Shown: piece by piece, positions 2,978-64,000 of the stretch
How positions within the stretch are numbered: position 1 is the first letter of the stretch
Layout of the letters: the number at the start of each line of letters is the position of its first letter
Assembly (NCBI GenBank): GCA_016202545.1
Contig: JACQON010000030.1
Coordinates: 33,599 to 97,598, forward strand
Length of the DNA: 64,000 bases
Source of the DNA: Chloroflexota bacterium
Lineage (GTDB): Bacteria; Chloroflexota; Dehalococcoidia; Dehalococcoidales; JACQON01
Reading direction: 5' to 3'
Notes under the pieces: generated by a model
The model's input: only the letters and a program-made list of their open reading frames with translations
Told to the model about the DNA's origin: nothing
Databases searched by the model: none
Translations under genes and position numbers: made by a program

Positions 2978-3478
2978 ATGGCTAAAACTACACTGGACCC
3001 AATCGTTGAGTTCCGGGAAGACCACCGGAAAGTGCGGGATAGCCTGCTTGACCTGGCCAGCGCCGCTGAGGCGGGGGACTTGGCCAGGGCCAGGGACATC
3101 CTGGGGAGAATAGATACTATGGTAGGGCCTCATTTCCGCTACGAGGAAGAGACCCTGTACCCTACCCTGAAGGAGTTCCTGGGCGACTACGTAGACAGCC
3201 TCATCAAGGAGCATGACGGGGCGATAGATACCGCCAGAGTCGCGGCTAAGCTGCTGTCCCAGCCTTCTCTGTCTGCGGAGGAAGGCAAAGCGGTGGCCAA
3301 AGCAGCCAGGGCGCTTCTGGTGCACGTCAGCAACTGCGACGGGCTGAACATACTGACCGAGCGGCTGTCAAAGGAGAAGCTGGCAGGGCTGGGCAAGCAC
3401 TTTGCCCGGTCTCGCGCTGAAGGCATATCCCTGCTCCGCTGGGCAGACACCATTCGAAAAGGACTAGCTGCAAGTTGA
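2978..3478 (+). CDS. Hemerythrin-like domain protein
   Basis: 166 aa with motifs FREDHRKVRD, HFRYEEETLYP and IKEHDG. It starts 4 nt after the previous stop, with GGGGAGG upstream. Confidence 0.65.
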   Translation: MAKTTLDPIVEFREDHRKVRDSLLDLASAAEAGDLARARDILGRIDTMVGPHFRYEEETLYPTLKEFLGDYVDSLIKEHDGAIDTARVAAKLLSQPSLSAEEGKAVAKAARALLVHVSNCDGLNILTERLSKEKLAGLGKHFARSRAEGISLLRWADTIRKGLAAS

Positions 3479-3903
3479 CCGCAGGAGCGTCTCCGGGAAA
3501 AGAGCGGGTGGCCGTAGTCCTTCACAGCGGCTCCTATGACCGCGCCTCTTACGCGCTGTCCATTGCCACCGTGGCCCTGGCCAGCGGCATGGAAGCGCAT
3601 ATATTGCTCACCTTCGACGGCCTGAGAAGGTTCACCAGGGGACATCTGACCGACATCGGCGAGGAGACCCCGCAAAGCCTGAGGGCCAACATCGAACGCG
3701 GGCTGAAATCAGGCGGTATTCAGTCGCTGGAGGACCAGCTAGCCGGCGCTAAGAAAATGGGACTCAAGCTCTATGCCTGTCCTAACGCCATGGCGGCGCT
3801 GAACATCGGTCTGAAAGACCTGCGTGAGGAGATAGACCAGATTATGGGGCTGGCTGCTTTCCTGGAGCTGGCCCGGACTGCCGCCATCAACTGGTACATC
3901 TGA
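3475..3903 (+). CDS. DsrE/DsrF-like (peroxiredoxin-family COG2210-like) protein
   Basis: 142 aa: VAVVLHSGSYDRASYALSIATVALASGMEAHILLTFDGL...LKLYACPNAM. The TTG start overlaps the upstream stop (TTGA). Confidence 0.65.
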   Translation: MTAGASPGKERVAVVLHSGSYDRASYALSIATVALASGMEAHILLTFDGLRRFTRGHLTDIGEETPQSLRANIERGLKSGGIQSLEDQLAGAKKMGLKLYACPNAMAALNIGLKDLREEIDQIMGLAAFLELARTAAINWYI

Positions 3904-4008
3904 TATTATGGCCCGCTACGCATCATAATAGCGCAACCTGATGGAAGGAGAGGAACCATAACTACCCTATTCGAAAGACTTGACGGCAAAAAGGCCAGAG
4001 ACCTGCGG

Positions 4009-4332
4009 GTGCTCAGCGATTTCATCGCCGTCTTTTGCCGTGAGAAGCACCAGGCTGAGTCCAGGGAAGCCTTTCCCATCAAGGACGAAAGACTGCGCCA
4101 GGCCATCGGCGATAAGGAGATGATGCTGTGCCCGGACTGCACCCGGCTATTCAGCCACGGCACCGCCAAGCTGCTTTTGTGCCCGTATGACCCCAAGCCG
4201 ATGTGCAAGAAGTGTGAGACCCACTGCTATGCGCCCGGTTACCGGGAAAAGATACGCGAAGTAATGAAATTCTCCGGCATGTACCTGATGAAACACGGCC
4301 GGATGGACCTGATGCTCCATTACTTCTTTTAA
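4009..4332 (+). CDS. Nitrous-oxide-stimulated promoter family protein (YgbA-like)
   Basis: 107 aa with a Cys pattern: FCREKH...CPDC...CPYDPKPMCKKCETHCY. The true start is uncertain, because the frame is open upstream to about 3919 without an ATG. Confidence 0.7.
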   Translation: MLSDFIAVFCREKHQAESREAFPIKDERLRQAIGDKEMMLCPDCTRLFSHGTAKLLLCPYDPKPMCKKCETHCYAPGYREKIREVMKFSGMYLMKHGRMDLMLHYFF

Positions 4333-9417: not shown

Positions 9418-9510
9418 GGCACTCTCGGCCTCTAGTGTCATGTCAGGTAAACAGGTGACTATTCTACTTCATCAGAAATGGTGGAAGTGCCTTGAGGGGA
9501 ACTTAGTCGA

Positions 9511-9731
9511 ACGCCCATCCCCTTCAGGGTGAACCCTTCAGAGCGAGCCTTCAGGACGAGCCTTCAGGGTGAACCCCTGTCCCCCTTCCCGATGGGAAGG
9601 GGGAGTTAAGTAGAAGAGAGGGGGCGGCAGCCCCCTCTCTATAATATCTTCCCCTTCTCCTAAAAGGAGAAGGGGATACTCGTTCCGATTATCGTCAGAG
9701 TGAATCGTCAGAGTGAAAGGGGATGAGGTCG
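9511..9731. repeat. Triple-hairpin repeat element, copy A
   Basis: Hairpins at 9581-9603 (10 bp), 9615-9640 (11 bp) and 9651-9675 (11 bp). The ends are ACGCCCATCCCC ... GGGGATGAGGTCG. It is homologous to 53555-53680. Confidence 0.75.
9522..9575. repeat. Four tandem 13-14-nt units CTTCAG(G/A)NNGA(A/G)C(C)
   Basis: CTTCAG starts at 9522, 9536, 9549 and 9562. A related pair, CGTCAGAGTGAA(T/A), starts at 9694 and 9707. Confidence 0.6.
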
Positions 9732-9786
9732 TCAGTAAGAATATGTACTGAAGCAGTAATGGGTCAGTAACTAACCTGACATTACA

Positions 9787-10713
9787 CTAGGTAGCCCTTA
9801 TCTCCTGCCTCATGAACAGTATATAGCTTGCGGCGAAGCAGATGGCGCTCAGACCTATCAGGCTGGTGAGCTGGGGCCAGATAAGCAGTATGCTCTGGCC
9901 CAGGGAGATGGGGTTGGGAATCATGAACTGCACCTGGCTCATGGTTACTATGCCCAGGCTTCTCACCTGCGGCAGCAGGAGCACCGTGGTTGCCTCTGAG
10001 AACAGCGTGTTGGGAGAAAAGCGCATTATCATTTGCTGCAGTTCGGCATTGCGGATGATGACCTCTGGTGAGGTGGCATTGGCAACCGGGACCAGGGCAT
10101 TGGCGATAGCCGGCGCCGCTATCAGGATGAAGATGCCAAAGAATAGCCAGATGGCGACCGGGGTGAGCAGAGAGGTGGCTATCTTGCGGAACAGGACGGA
10201 AAAGAGCACCGCCAGGCCCAGCCAGAAGGCCCCGTAGATTATGGTGAAGACCAGGTAGATGGAAAGCCTGACTATCTCCTCAGCCGTTGGCGGCACGCCT
10301 ATCATGACCAGGCCGTATCCAGCGACCACCATCATGGTGGCCACCACCATCACGGATAAAGTGATGATGCCGGCCAGGAATTTGCCATTGATGACGTTGT
10401 CCCGGAAGATGGGCTGAGCCAGGACACGGCTCAGGGTGCCGCTCTGGCGCTCGCTGTTTATGGCGTCAAAGCCCAGGGCGATGCCTATTATCGGGATGAG
10501 CAGGACGATAAAGGTGACCAGCGAAGGCATTGCCTCGCCTGAGGTAGTGAACAGTCTCAGAAAGACGAAACCGGATTCGCTGACCTGTCCGCGGATGTTC
10601 TGCTGGACGGCGTAAAGGGCGCCTCCGGAGGTAAGAAAGACTATCAGCATCAGTATGAACACCCTTACGCTGGTGAAATAGTCAGCAAGCTCTTTACGAA
10701 CGATTGTTGCCAT
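9787..10713 (-). CDS. ABC-2 type transporter permease
   Basis: 308 aa with about 6 TM segments. It lies immediately downstream of an ABC ATPase. Confidence 0.75.
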   Translation of the reverse strand: MATIVRKELADYFTSVRVFILMLIVFLTSGGALYAVQQNIRGQVSESGFVFLRLFTTSGEAMPSLVTFIVLLIPIIGIALGFDAINSERQSGTLSRVLAQPIFRDNVINGKFLAGIITLSVMVVATMMVVAGYGLVMIGVPPTAEEIVRLSIYLVFTIIYGAFWLGLAVLFSVLFRKIATSLLTPVAIWLFFGIFILIAAPAIANALVPVANATSPEVIIRNAELQQMIMRFSPNTLFSEATTVLLLPQVRSLGIVTMSQVQFMIPNPISLGQSILLIWPQLTSLIGLSAICFAASYILFMRQEIRAT

Positions 10714-10721
10714 CGGTTACG

Positions 10722-11657
10722 TCATCCCTCGTGAAAGTATTTCATGTATATATCGTCCAGGTTGAACTCCTGGATTTTCATCTGAATCAGAAGGAAATCG
10801 CTCTGCACCACCACTTTGGATATCTCAGCGCGCAGGTCTGAGTCAGTGATGACCATGAGCAGGTCGCCACTGGTCTTTACCTCTTTGACATCGGGAATCG
10901 CCTTGATGGTATCCACCAGGGCGGGGGTCGGCCGGCGTGTTTCAATCTCTATGCGGTAGCGGCCTCCAGCCAGTGCCTGCCTGCCCAGCTCATCTATGCT
11001 GCCCTGGACCACCAGCTTCCCTTTTGATAGTATGCCGATGCTGCTGCACACCCTCTGCACCTCATAGAGACGGTGCGAGCTCATGACTACAGTCGTCCCC
11101 ATTCCAGGCAGCTTGGCCATCAGGTCGAGTATCTGGTTGATGCCCTCGGGGTCTAGCCCGGCGGTGGGCTCGTCAAAGATGGCCAGCCTCGGCTTCTTAA
11201 CGAGCACATCGGCAATCCCCAGGCGCTGTTTCATGCCGCGGGAGAAGTTACCCACTTTTACGTCCGCCACCTGGGCGATGCCCACCCCCTCCAACACCTC
11301 ATCTATCCGGCGCCGGGCCTCGACATAGCCGATGGCGTTGAGCTCGGCGATAAAGTCCAGGTTCTCCCTGGCGGTGAGGCTCTCGTAGAAGCCGACTTTC
11401 TCCGGCATATATCCCACCTGGCGTTTTACCTCCAGGGGCTGCCTGGTGGGGTCCAACCCGCATACCCGGACGGTGCCCGCCACTGGCTCGGTCAGCCCGA
11501 GCAACATGAGGATAGTAGTCGTCTTGCCGGCGCCGTTGGGACCGAGCAGGCCAAACACTTCCCCCTCCTCAATGCTGAGGTTGAGGCTGTCCACTACAGT
11601 GGCGCTGTCGTACCTTTTGGTCAGGTTACAGGTCTCTACTACTATCTCTCTGCCCAT
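10722..11657 (-). CDS. ABC transporter ATP-binding protein
   Basis: Walker A GPNGAGKTT, signature FSRGMKQRL, and Walker B LAIFDEPTAGLD. Confidence 0.9.
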   Translation of the reverse strand: MGREIVVETCNLTKRYDSATVVDSLNLSIEEGEVFGLLGPNGAGKTTTILMLLGLTEPVAGTVRVCGLDPTRQPLEVKRQVGYMPEKVGFYESLTARENLDFIAELNAIGYVEARRRIDEVLEGVGIAQVADVKVGNFSRGMKQRLGIADVLVKKPRLAIFDEPTAGLDPEGINQILDLMAKLPGMGTTVVMSSHRLYEVQRVCSSIGILSKGKLVVQGSIDELGRQALAGGRYRIEIETRRPTPALVDTIKAIPDVKEVKTSGDLLMVITDSDLRAEISKVVVQSDFLLIQMKIQEFNLDDIYMKYFHEG

Positions 11658-11660
11658 GTT

Positions 11661-12524
11661 TTACCGTCTGCCGAACCGCCAGAAGACCACGCTCAAGCCA
11701 GCGATGACCACCAGTATGACTCCAACGCCGACCCAGCCCCAGACGGTGGGCGTCTCTACGGTCACCCTGATGTTAAGGTCGGTTGCCTGGGTCTGCTTGC
11801 CTGAAGCGGTGAGGGTGATGGAATAGTCCCCGGCGATTGTCCTTGCCGGCGGCTTGATATTCACATCCACCGTTCGAGAGTCAAGGGTCGGCAGGGAATC
11901 TACTTTATCAGGGGTGAATTTTATTATCCACCCTTCGGGCTTCTTCGATTGGAAGGAAATATCCTCAACGGCCGCCGAGCCCAGATTATCAAGCTTCAAC
12001 GAGAAGAAGTTGTCCTTGCCTGCGGCAGCCTTGGTATCATACCGCTCCGATGCGGGAGATAACCCCATCCTGTAAATGGCAACCACTACTGCGGTAAGGT
12101 CAATGCTCTGGCTAACGTCACCCGCCCTGGCTTGCAGGGTTAACTTATATTCCCCTGGCTCGGGTATAGAAAAAGAAGGCGGTGACGTTACCACTTTTAC
12201 ATCCTGGCCATAGGTCTTCAGGGGCTCAAGAACGATGCTGCGTATCCTCGTTTCACCGACGTCAGACGAGGTGATATAGGTAGTCCAGTTCTGGGGCCCG
12301 GTAACCAGCAGGTCAAAGGGGCGCACGCCAGGCCCCATGTACTTCAACTGCACCTCAAAGGTGAAGGTAAGCCCGGGGAAAGTAGCCTCTACCTTGGGAA
12401 ACTTGGGCACCAGCTCAACCGTTTCCTTGATGCCCGTTTCTTCCTGGGCCAGGGCTGGCTGATAAATTGCCATTATGCCTGTGGCTATGAGAAACAAGCA
12501 ACAGGCTACCCTTACGATTTTCAT
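11661..12524 (-). CDS. Secreted, C-terminally anchored beta-rich protein (NEW3/COG1470-like), first gene of the ABC-2 operon
   Basis: Signal peptide MKIVRVACCLFLIATGIMAIYQPALAQ, repeated beta-sandwich-like segments, and a C-terminal TM (VWGWVGVGVILVVIAGLSVVFW). Confidence 0.55.
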   Translation of the reverse strand: MKIVRVACCLFLIATGIMAIYQPALAQEETGIKETVELVPKFPKVEATFPGLTFTFEVQLKYMGPGVRPFDLLVTGPQNWTTYITSSDVGETRIRSIVLEPLKTYGQDVKVVTSPPSFSIPEPGEYKLTLQARAGDVSQSIDLTAVVVAIYRMGLSPASERYDTKAAAGKDNFFSLKLDNLGSAAVEDISFQSKKPEGWIIKFTPDKVDSLPTLDSRTVDVNIKPPARTIAGDYSITLTASGKQTQATDLNIRVTVETPTVWGWVGVGVILVVIAGLSVVFWRFGRR

Positions 12525-31667: not shown

Positions 31668-31700
31668 ATCGGCTAGTAAGCCTCAGGCTTACTAGCCGAT
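31668..31700. terminator. 14-bp perfect hairpin between convergent ferredoxin and cvpA genes
   Basis: ATCGGCTAGTAAGC-ctcag-GCTTACTAGCCGAT. There is no clear T-tract on either strand. Confidence 0.4.
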
Positions 31701-40661: not shown

Positions 40662-40758
40662 GCCTTGCCCCTCCGAGTCGGGATTTGCCTGTATCTATCA
40701 GAATAATACCATAGACTGGTAAAACAGTTAAAGCCGGGTTAGTGATACTGCTTAGAAA

Positions 40759-40835
40759 CCCATCCCCCTGGCCCTCTTCCCTTAACCCCAAGGGAGGGGG
40801 GCAAATTTTTTAAGAGGGGCGAAAGCCCCTCTTAA
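40759..40835. repeat. Two-hairpin repeat element, copy C
   Basis: Hairpin 40772-40801 has 12 bp including two G.U pairs on the plus strand. Hairpin 40810-40835 has an 11-bp stem and a GAAA loop. Confidence 0.65.
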
Positions 40836-40873
40836 GCTCTCTATTTACTTAATTGCTCTTATGTTAAAAAGAC

Positions 40874-40902
40874 TTGACAAACTAAACAATAAGTCTTATA
40901 AT
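40874..40902 (+). promoter_or_regulatory. Perfect consensus sigma70 promoter TTGACA-17-TATAAT
   Basis: -35 at 40874-40879, an exactly 17-nt spacer, and -10 at 40897-40902. It lies inside the ORF-track ORF that starts at 40861, so the real start is the ATG at 40936 (RBS GGAGG). Confidence 0.7.
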
Positions 40903-40935
40903 AGAAATAACCTTACTAACATATGGAGGCCTAAG

Positions 40936-41810: not shown

Positions 41811-41854
41811 GAATATGGGTAATGAAGCGATACCTCATGGCACGTGGGCGTCTA

Positions 41855-41882
41855 AGAGGGGCGGAAGCCCCTCTGTCTTTTT
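41855..41882 (+). terminator. Rho-independent terminator of the cassette (hairpin-2 type repeat, copy D)
   Basis: AGAGGGGC-ggaa-GCCCCTCT, followed by GTCTTTTT. Confidence 0.65.
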
Positions 41883-41910
41883 CCTCCCCCTTTTGAAAAT
41901 CTCTCTCTGT

Positions 41911-41979
41911 CTCCCTTTACCAAAGGGGGAACTAAGGGGGATTTAATAATGAGAGATTCTTCGCTTTGCTCAGAATGAC
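41911..41979. repeat. Composite of two repeat families: a CCCTTT-acc-AAAGGG hairpin with a ...AACTAAGGGGGATTT tail, plus a reversed half copy of the GTCATTSYGAG...GAAGMAATCTC element
   Basis: 41911-41944 is the reverse complement of the element at 63969-64000. 41951-41979 (GAGAGATTCTTCGCTTTGCTCAGAATGAC) is the reverse complement of a 39517-type arm. Confidence 0.6.
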
Positions 41980-53428: not shown

Positions 53429-53458
53429 ATTATGCACCATAAGCCGGTGTTCTGTCAA
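53429..53458 (-). promoter_or_regulatory. Sigma70-like promoter TTGACA-18-CATAAT (minus strand) for rpsP
   Basis: On the minus strand, -35 is at 53458-53453 and -10 at 53434-53429, with a TG just upstream of the -10. Confidence 0.5.
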
Positions 53459-53554
53459 CAATGGCTTCATAGTGGCCGCTTATGAATACACCCCGTCATT
53501 GCTATGAAAATAGAGGCTACGTATGCTTGGATATTATCGGTTGACTTCAGGCGG

Positions 53555-53680
53555 ACGCCCATCTCCCTACCCTCTTCCCCGTGGGAAGAGGGAGTTAAGT
53601 AAAAGAGAGGGGCGGAGCCCCTCTCTAAATCTCTTCCCCCTCTCCTTGGCAAGGAGAGGGGGATACAGGGGGTGAGGTCG
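53555..53680. repeat. Triple-hairpin repeat element, copy B
   Basis: Hairpins at 53570-53592, 53604-53626 and 53636-53662. The ends are ACGCCCATCTCCC ... GGGGGTGAGGTCG, in the same order and spacing as copy A. Confidence 0.75.
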
Positions 53681-53718
53681 ACGCGAATGTATCAAAACTG
53701 CCTTTCCATTGCTTGTGG

Positions 53719-53734
53719 TGCAATTGAAATTGCA
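53719..53734. promoter_or_regulatory. Palindrome TGCAATT-ga-AATTGCA upstream of the nuo promoter (candidate operator)
   Basis: Perfect 7-bp inverted repeat, 37 nt upstream of the putative -35. Confidence 0.3.
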
Positions 53735-63968: not shown

Positions 63969-64000
63969 AAATCCCCCTTAGTCCCCCTTTTCCAAAGGGG
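63969..64000. repeat. Partial copy (cut by the window end) of the AAATCCCCCTTAGT-CCCCCTTTnnnAAAGGGG hairpin repeat
   Basis: AAATCCCCCTTAGTCCCCCTTTTCCAAAGGGG matches the reverse complement of 41911-41944. Confidence 0.55.

Follow-up and report, generated by a model that had tools for sequence, protein, structure and literature searches.

The 64,000-nucleotide stretch considered here, hereafter the window, belongs to contig JACQON010000030.1 of a Chloroflexota genome of the order Dehalococcoidales (assembly GCA_016202545.1) and carries two intergenic copies of a hairpin-rich core. The first one, copy A, lies between the convergent genes of an ABC-2 permease, i.e., a permease of the ATP-binding cassette (ABC) type, and of elongation factor G (EF-G), while the second one, copy B, separates rpsP on the minus strand from nuoA on the plus strand and is situated upstream of the two predicted promoters. 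In each core, three consecutive hairpins (H1, H2, and H3) have homopurine or homopyrimidine arms in a fixed order, namely pyrimidine first in H1, purine first in H2 and pyrimidine first in H3, and the ends of the core pair with each other in a closing stem (P1), giving a four-helix junction in the predicted fold. The six perfect hairpins recovered by script at copies A and B have stems of 10-13 bp and loops of 3-4 nt, and no other place in the whole window offers a perfect hairpin of 8 bp or more whose arms are homopurine/homopyrimidine. The sequence reading of the initial annotation, which had first compared the two copies, proved exact in its details: they share their ends (ACGCCCATC at the start and GGGG(A/G)TGAGGTCG at the finish), both arms of H1 change together from one copy to the other (CCCCCTTCCC/GGGAAGGGGG in A vs CCCTCTTCCC/GGGAAGAGGG in B), H2 counts 11 bp in A and 10 bp in B, and H3 reads CCCCTTCTCCT/AGGAGAAGGGG in A vs CCCCCTCTCCTT/AAGGAGAGGGGG in B. 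Copy A folds with a z-score of -9.1 against dinucleotide shuffles and copy B with one of -6.0, and a covariance model built from 14 copies matches copy B with 119.5 bits (E=1.6e-28) and copy A with 99 bits (E=3e-23). The greater length of copy A is due to two 13-nt tandem arrays located inside it (9520-9569 and 9691-9717).

An insertion that duplicates TA, often that of a stop codon

The core of copy A is nested in a longer element of 357 nt (9433-9789), with a duplicated TA and terminal inverted repeats (TIRs; TAGTGTCNNGTCAGGTAAA) at its ends. From the outside inwards, the element is composed of (i) TIRs of 17-19 bp, (ii) two poorly conserved arms, and (iii) a core of about 125 nt, made up of the closing stem and the three perfect hairpins. 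As such, the interval 9511-9731 originally assigned to the element holds for the core but not for the element as a whole, and the imperfect inverted ends described there correspond to the internal closing stem, the true TIRs being situated 60-80 nt farther out. For the TIR pair of copy A, 0.04 chance matches to the pattern are expected. The core-flanking TIR is also found in L001, L003, L007, L009, L010, and L021 (the loci compared with the window bear an L and a number), and all TIR-like matches in element-bearing loci are 100-170 nt away from a core. The other type-1 copies (copy A is one by its arms) have these TIRs at their ends as well, and the TA is present at seven of eight left ends and ten of twelve right ends. 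Measured from TIR to TIR, other copies span about 260-290 nt. No open reading frame (ORF) of 60 aa or more occurs within copy A.

Loci lacking the element reveal what was there before. In the window, the stop codons of the permease and EF-G genes are 369 nt apart; in six syntenic loci (L028-L033), which hold the closest homologues of the ABC-2 permease of the window, the distance is 1-23 nt and the gap is free of the element. The gene order at these loci comprises two electron transfer flavoprotein (ETF) genes, a gene for an NPCBM-associated protein, an ABC ATPase and the ABC-2 permease converging on EF-G. The C-terminus of the permease (...EIRAT*) is conserved, being the same in the window and in the empty-site relatives, and the reconstructed pre-insertion site, C-TA-G, is the TA of the permease TAG stop. 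At present, the TAG that closes the permease gene of the window (9787-10713, minus strand) is formed by TA together with the terminal G of the TIR. Since the outermost base of the TIR is a G on each strand, TA plus G again reads TAG after insertion and the struck gene stays intact. The same TA plus G closes long ORFs of 124-362 codons at L001, L003, L007, L009, and L010 (left end), as it does at copy A in the window. A second empty site is provided by the window itself, where atpG and atpD are only 12 nt apart, relative to L023 (1403-1685), in which the element, oriented in sense and abutting a TAA, separates the stop codon of atpG from the ribosome-binding site of atpD. Sitting in sense inside the ATP synthase operon, the L023 element must permit read-through in its plus-strand form. 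Compared with orthologous loci, the element represents an insertion that duplicates TA, often the one in a stop codon.

Copies were retrieved by exact match to the 19 specified bases of a 20-nt pattern taken from the H1-H2 linker region of the core. This linker search returned full copies in two other metagenome-assembled genomes (MAGs), namely Dehalococcoidales JAUYHA010000054 and Chloroflexota JAZDIY010000044, and 23 matching stretches in metagenomes, 19 of which are true copies. Besides diverged variants, 21 strong covariance-model copies (83-152 bits) are distributed over about 20 contigs, where they adjoin unrelated housekeeping genes. In 60,885 bp of relatives (66-84% protein identity), the model found no match, and these relatives have 0 hairpins with homopurine/homopyrimidine arms, against 58 in DNA that carries the element. 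Some 21 further copies occur at unrelated loci in MAGs of Dehalococcoidales/Chloroflexota and in metagenomes, and the family is carried by uncultured Dehalococcoidia-type Chloroflexota as a non-coding insertion that is bounded by TIRs, duplicates TA and recurs at many sites, unrelated to each other, in several genomes. Of note, the sole other contig with an identical permease gene (L027, Logan SRR12113385) stops about 40 nt past the right TIR (1759-1777), which is the type of assembly break expected at a dispersed repeat. The patterns of core and TIR each matched once on viral contigs, inside phage coding sequence, and both matches were rejected as chance occurrences.

Taken as a whole, the observations are best explained by a new family of TA-duplicating, non-coding MITEs (short for miniature inverted-repeat transposable elements) with a constrained hairpin core, probably mobilised by a transposase of the IS630/Tc1-mariner type, and we consider this reading the probable one. 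A MITE-type origin was the second suggestion of the initial annotation and turned out to be right on account of the TIRs, the TA duplication, the lack of coding capacity, the dispersed copies, and the empty sites. In the proposed mechanism, a TA-duplicating DDE transposase (IS630/Tc1-mariner type) would recognise the TIRs and move the element in trans, and, because the stop is restored by the TIR, the copies surviving in compact genomes would be those that hit a stop codon at its TA or fell into a short spacer. The insertion sequence (IS) IS630 prefers CTAG as a target, and the target observed here is Y-TA-G. Such stop-rebuilding TIR geometry would offer a TA-targeting element a route into genomes with gene gaps of 1-23 nt without gene killing. 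At the gathering score, Rfam gave no hit over the whole window, and Rfam scans by E-value at both copies returned generic hairpin or miRNA models only, far below the cut-offs. The literature searched contains no paper joining Dehalococcoid* with MITE, and the papers it contains that mention repetitive extragenic palindromic (REP) sequences do not describe the element. With the present anatomy and covariance model, a repeat family of uncultured Dehalococcoidia/Chloroflexota MAGs becomes recognisable, which matters as such repeats break assemblies and can pass for regulatory RNAs. Two of its features are worth following, i.e., the ends that rebuild stop codons and the higher conservation of the core relative to the arms next to the TIRs.

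Conservation and pairing of the core

Considering the 21 copies in an alignment fitted to the model, 97.9% of 850 cells form standard pairs, and controls in which partners are slid along the alignment lower the pairing to 58-68.5%. Changes on both sides of a pair concern 6 of 43 pairs (11 cells), against about 2 in shuffles, and none of 500 shuffles reaches the observed value. In a MAFFT alignment, made without fitting to the structure, paired cells amount to 96.7% and double changes occur in 4 pairs (7 cells); the covariation score is 0.101 vs 0.078 in shuffles (0/500), but the count of double-change pairs alone is unexceptional (29/500 shuffles). The compensated differences first noticed between copies A and B thus recur across the family above the level of shuffles. 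The accompanying claim that selection acts on the fold and not on the sequence was nonetheless overstated, since 19 of the 33 hairpin pairs are invariant (24 of 43 pairs if departures only by unpaired cells are counted in). With most pairs invariant, the data show stem sequence and pairing conserved together, not pure structural covariation.

The contrast between stems and loops, which the same annotation had put forward as a check, is pronounced: agreement with the consensus over the 21 copies amounts to 95.6% for stems and to 37-55%, i.e., near random, for hairpin loops, the values being 70% for unpaired positions not covered by the search pattern and about 82% for linker 2. The same holds for the core relative to its surroundings: its pairwise identity is 0.85-0.89, whereas the left arm reaches 0.62 and the right arm 0.72, and in all 16 matched pairs it is the core that shows the higher similarity. 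In contrast to the drifting arms and loops, the core and the TIRs are conserved, and we infer that the stems are kept by purifying selection. As to the reason for this constraint, we lean, without much assurance, towards an effect at the level of the element, whereby only copies with a compact folded centre would stay able to propagate, through DNA hairpins or cruciforms. Somewhat less favoured is an effect in transcripts, where the hairpins would act as a barrier or processing structure making insertions after genes or in operons tolerable or useful, and some other cause altogether is rather unlikely. With a core far better conserved than arms and loops, the family makes a concrete case for asking whether the internal structure of a MITE serves its propagation or host transcripts.

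Mobilisation, strand, and rival explanations

Several observations weigh against the reading as an IS630-type MITE with a constrained core. Firstly, the 40 window ORFs scanned (64 kb of genome) are all housekeeping and include no transposase, and the DNA fetched contains no additional TIR pair, hence no autonomous partner there; as no partner transposase was found, it is the TA duplication and the Y-TA-G target that carry the IS630-type assignment. Secondly, neither TIRs nor a target duplication could be assigned convincingly to copy B, the arms of which match subfamily-2 copies only. Thirdly, two-hairpin and head-to-head modules come without recognisable arms, and the core may have a separate history or its own means of moving. 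Fourthly, retrieval by an exact 19-nt match inflates the apparent conservation of linker 1 and of part of H2; the linker, ascertained by the search pattern, is thus uninformative, and the comparison of the remaining core with the arms stays a fair one. Fifthly, the evidence regarding strand and medium is mixed and not decisive. On the one hand, DNA is favoured by the balance of hairpin mismatches (11 G.T vs 10 C.A cells), by loops mostly of 3 nt and by the similar folding of the full element on both strands (-167.6 and -161.1 kcal/mol). On the other hand, a plus-strand RNA is favoured by the closing stem, which shows plus-strand wobbles only (31 G.U, or G.T, cells vs 0 A.C), and RNA by the upstream gene, which is co-oriented in 11 of 14 verified cases (two-sided p ~0.06). 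A strand test based on GNRA and UUCG tetraloops was unusable, the apparent UUCG being C-UUC-G triloops and GNRA loops numbering two only.

One rival explanation sees in the core an RNA structure that works for the host and is transcribed along with the upstream gene. Comparable to REP, ERIC, or Correia elements, it would block 3'-to-5' exonucleases, serve as a processing site or terminate transcription depending on its orientation, and its conservation would stem from this RNA function, the MITE being a mere vehicle. Besides the co-oriented upstream genes and the wobbles of the closing stem, this explanation can invoke the position between co-directional genes, where 6 copies are in sense, including the atp operon insertion, and 1 in antisense (p ~0.13), as well as the U.G intermediates seen at three pairs shifted from C-G to U-A. 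While no intrinsic terminator signature was found on the plus strand of either copy, the minus strand is terminator-like at H2 of copy B (AGAGAGGGGC TCC GCCCCTCTCT, then the T-rich TTTACTTAAC), and such a T-rich tail could make antisense insertions in operons harmful, which could explain their avoidance. However, the orientation statistics are weak, hairpin mismatches have no strand bias, both strands fold equally well, and the search for plus-strand terminator signatures returned none. Moreover, copy B is upstream of both predicted divergent promoters, and so probably untranscribed from them, and many copies are truncated or decayed, so that not all are maintained in place. A host-functional RNA is accordingly possible but doubtful.

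A related but more far-reaching proposal would make the core a module constrained in both sequence and structure with a function of its own, either as a strand-specific barrier at transcript 3' ends, processing platform or insulator, or as a DNA hairpin platform for transposition. Such a module would be shuffled among MITE shells and mosaic arrays in the genome-streamlined Dehalococcoidia, with a shell evolved to land on and rebuild stop codons, in other words a REP-like system on a cut-and-paste chassis instead of the REP-associated tyrosine transposase (RAYT). We retain this proposal as a tentative one, on the unlikely side.

The compensated changes could also be a mutational by-product, whereby a quasipalindrome corrects itself by intrastrand template switching, which either reverts a change or copies it to the other arm. 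Near-perfect stems with hypervariable loops, minimal centres of 3 nt, strand-symmetric mismatches and the small number of double changes (11 of 850 cells) all agree with such self-correction. Alone, though, it predicts neutral paired drift, whereas the stems keep to their consensus in the very copies whose arms are 62-72% identical, and the unpaired linker 2 is conserved too. Given the low rate of paired change, self-correction is not the whole explanation and cannot account for stems that change less than arms; we regard it as unlikely.

The first suggestion of the initial annotation, i.e., an element of the REP type or a bacterial interspersed mosaic element (BIME), would have single-stranded DNA hairpins spread by a RAYT, a tyrosine transposase of the HUH type akin to IS200/IS605, with the outer inverted repeats incidental. 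The element does resemble such repeats in its short GC-rich extragenic hairpins (units of 23-29 nt, stems conserved, loops free), in its mosaic clusters of variable number, including head-to-head arrangements, and in the strand-symmetric mismatches and minimal 3-nt loops expected of DNA hairpins. HUH/RAYT mobilisation (IS200/IS605) produces no target duplication. The TIRs, the TA duplication and the clean empty sites speak against the suggestion, and so do hairpins with homopyrimidine/homopurine arms and no conserved GTAG-type head; among the 40 window ORFs, no RAYT was found, nor a transposase of any kind. A REP/BIME-type repeat is therefore improbable. Finally, that the likeness of copies A and B would be a chance or low-complexity artefact between unrelated purine/pyrimidine-rich stretches is practically inconceivable, since, for all that the arms are low-complexity homopurine/homopyrimidine runs, the E-values (1e-23 to 1e-28), the z-scores (-6 to -9) and about 21 further full copies refute it.

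Among known systems, the closest mechanistic analogue of the MITE proposed here is RUP, mobilised by IS630-Spn1 in Streptococcus pneumoniae. RUP is a small, non-coding, intergenic element with TIRs, TA insertion and many copies (PMC2229807), and the present element shares with it the TIRs, the TA duplication and the lack of coding capacity. RUP is 107 bp long, no internal structure or function motif has been reported for it, and TA targets are used by both RUP and IS630-Spn1 (PMC2229807). Unlike RUP, of which the TIRs match those of a known IS, the present element is about 260-360 bp long, has a conserved four-helix centre and relies on a presumed partner IS. Correia elements duplicate TA as well. 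Also named NEMIS, these intergenic TIR-bearing MITEs of Neisseria give rise to stem-loops in transcripts, for which RNase III cleavage and an influence on adjacent mRNAs have been proposed (PMC2229807). Together with ERIC, they are analogues for effects at the transcript level (PMC2229807). In Correia elements, however, the processed helix is made by the TIRs and the internal motif is a binding site for the integration host factor (IHF), whereas the conserved structure of the present element consists of three internal homopurine/homopyrimidine hairpins. REP/BIME sequences consist of GC-rich hairpins, 20-40 nt long and extragenic, in which stems are conserved and loops variable, and which form mosaic clusters of variable composition (PMC2817692). 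The present element resembles them in its hairpins, but REPs lack TIRs and target duplication, bear a tetranucleotide head that is conserved and are tied to a RAYT gene. BOX/SPRITE in S. pneumoniae and ERIC/IRU in enterobacteria are modular: the count of their internal sub-units varies, stable RNA folds are predicted for them, they contain modules that look like terminators, and they influence the stability of mRNA (PMC2229807, PMC10969869). The modularity of BOX/SPRITE (PMC10969869) is comparable to that of the present 13-nt unit, found in 0, 1, 2 or 4 copies, and of the variants with 2, 3, or 5 hairpins, but BOX, SPRITE, and ERIC/IRU have no sequence relationship to the present family, and BOX is devoid of a TA-duplicating TIR shell.

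Feature coordinates, copy B, and diverged relatives

Table 1. Coordinates of copies A and B and of their constituent parts in the window.
Feature	Position	Strand	Description
Left end, copy A	9433-9451	+	duplicated TA (9433-9434) and left TIR TAGTGTCATGTCAGGTAAA; 0 mismatches to the family TIR pattern
Left arm, copy A	9452-9510	+	homologous to left arms of type-1 copies, mean pairwise identity 0.62
P1 closing stem, 5' half, copy A	9513-9522	+	GCCCATCCCC; helices 1-2 98% paired over 21 copies
13-nt tandem array, copy A	9520-9569	+	3.8 copies of CCCTTCAGGGCGA; core expansion limited to some copies
H1, copy A	9580-9604	+	TCCCCCTTCCC GAT GGGAAGGGGGA, 11 bp, pyrimidine arm first
Linker 1, copy A	9605-9614	+	GTTAAGTAGA; consensus AGTTAAGTAAA, the first A of which is paired in H1 of copy A
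H2, copy A	9615-9640	+	AGAGAGGGGGC GGCA GCCCCCTCTCT, purine arm first
H3, copy A	9650-9676	+	TCCCCTTCTCCT AAA AGGAGAAGGGGA
Second 13-nt tandem array, copy A	9691-9717	+	2.1 copies of ATCGTCAGAGTGA
P1 closing stem, 3' half, copy A	9719-9729	+	GGGGATGAGGT
Right arm, copy A	9730-9770	+	mean pairwise identity 0.72 among 12 copies
Right end, copy A	9771-9789	-	right TIR TAGTGTAATGTCAGGTTAG (minus strand) and duplicated TA (9788-9789)
Candidate decayed left TIR, copy B	53446-53464	+	GGTGTTCTGTCAACAATGG; alignment judged by eye, weak assignment
Left flank, copy B	53493-53554	+	common to subfamily-2 copies L005 and L018 (CCGTCATTGYTRTGAAAAYAGAG...)
Core, copy B	53555-53680	+	P1 5' half 53557-53566, H1 53570-53592, H2 53604-53626, H3 53635-53663, P1 3' half 53668-53678
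Right flank, copy B	53682-53721	+	common to L005 and L018 (...CATTG..TTGTGGTGC)

The core of copy B is 81% identical to type-1 cores, while its flanks reach 51% identity to type-1 arms, against 48-49% for shuffled sequence. As these flanks match L005 and L018 (Table 1) and not the type-1 arms, copy B belongs to a second arm subfamily. Orthology of copy B with the copies at L005 and L018 was ruled out, tblastn finding neither rpsP nor nuoA in those two loci. The idea that the arms of copy B decayed in place, which would have been proof of selection on the core at the level of the host, was rejected as well, because the recurrence of these arms in L005 and L018 indicates inheritance from a master copy of the subfamily. 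The relatives come without the element, but an orthologous empty site could not be established for copy B, the synteny upstream of nuoA not being kept in L034-L036 and the spacers being unalignable past the promoter and ribosome-binding site. Of note, the predicted rpsP promoter has a -35 box TTGACA at 53453-53458 (minus strand; 11/12 match together with CATAAT), which overlaps the candidate TIR, so that the repeat may have contributed part of this promoter. A 61-aa ORF with a TTG start (53467-53652, minus strand) runs through copy B and is probably a spurious reading of purine/pyrimidine arms.

The family also includes forms departing from the three-hairpin layout, namely five-hairpin variants (L004, L021, and L022), two-hairpin forms and head-to-head partial cores (L008 and L009) and truncated copies (L011, L017, and L024). 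Some contigs are very densely populated, e.g., L008 with 4 copies in 12 kb (601-783, 3850-4070, and 11592-11721), including a head-to-head pair of partial cores in a BIME-like layout (3850-3966 on the minus strand and 3970-4070 on the plus strand), and further L009 copies are found at 882-1124 and 3365-3494. Between the closing stem and H1, a unit of 13-15 nt (TTCAGGGTGAACCC) is repeated 0, 1, 2 or about 4 times depending on the copy, e.g., once in L025, twice in L005 (4741-4770) and not at all in most copies. Both this unit and the related one of the second array of copy A (ATCGTCAGAGTGA) resemble the sequence at the core/arm junction, which suggests local slippage.

Within the window itself, the count of two copies given by the initial annotation was too low, as degenerate relatives of the core occur at three more places. 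The first one, at about 40759-40835 between a divergent M48 peptidase gene and a small ORF, combines a P1-like CCCATCCCCCTG with an H1 that is broken and a hairpin of the H2 type that is intact (TTAAGAGGGGC GAAA GCCCCTCTTAA), with a partial model match of 20-30 bits near 40754-40914. The second one, at 41846-41943 between convergent genes, reads GGGCGTC TAAGAGGGGC GGAA GCCCCTCT ... CCCTTT ACC AAAGGG ... CTAAGGGGGATTT and matches the 3' half of the five-hairpin variants, with a weak model match near 41825-41947. The third one, at 63969-64000 (minus strand) just past the nuoN stop codon, consists of AAATCCCCCTTAGTCCCCCTTTTCCAAAGGGG, the reverse complement of the motif at 41913-41944, and by this likeness is read as an oppositely oriented member of the family cut by the end of the window. 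A further perfect palindrome of 15 bp at 31668-31700, in a short intergenic spacer (ATCGGCTAGTAAGCC TCA GGCTTACTAGCCGAT), is unrelated and stands outside the hairpin family because its arms are of mixed composition.

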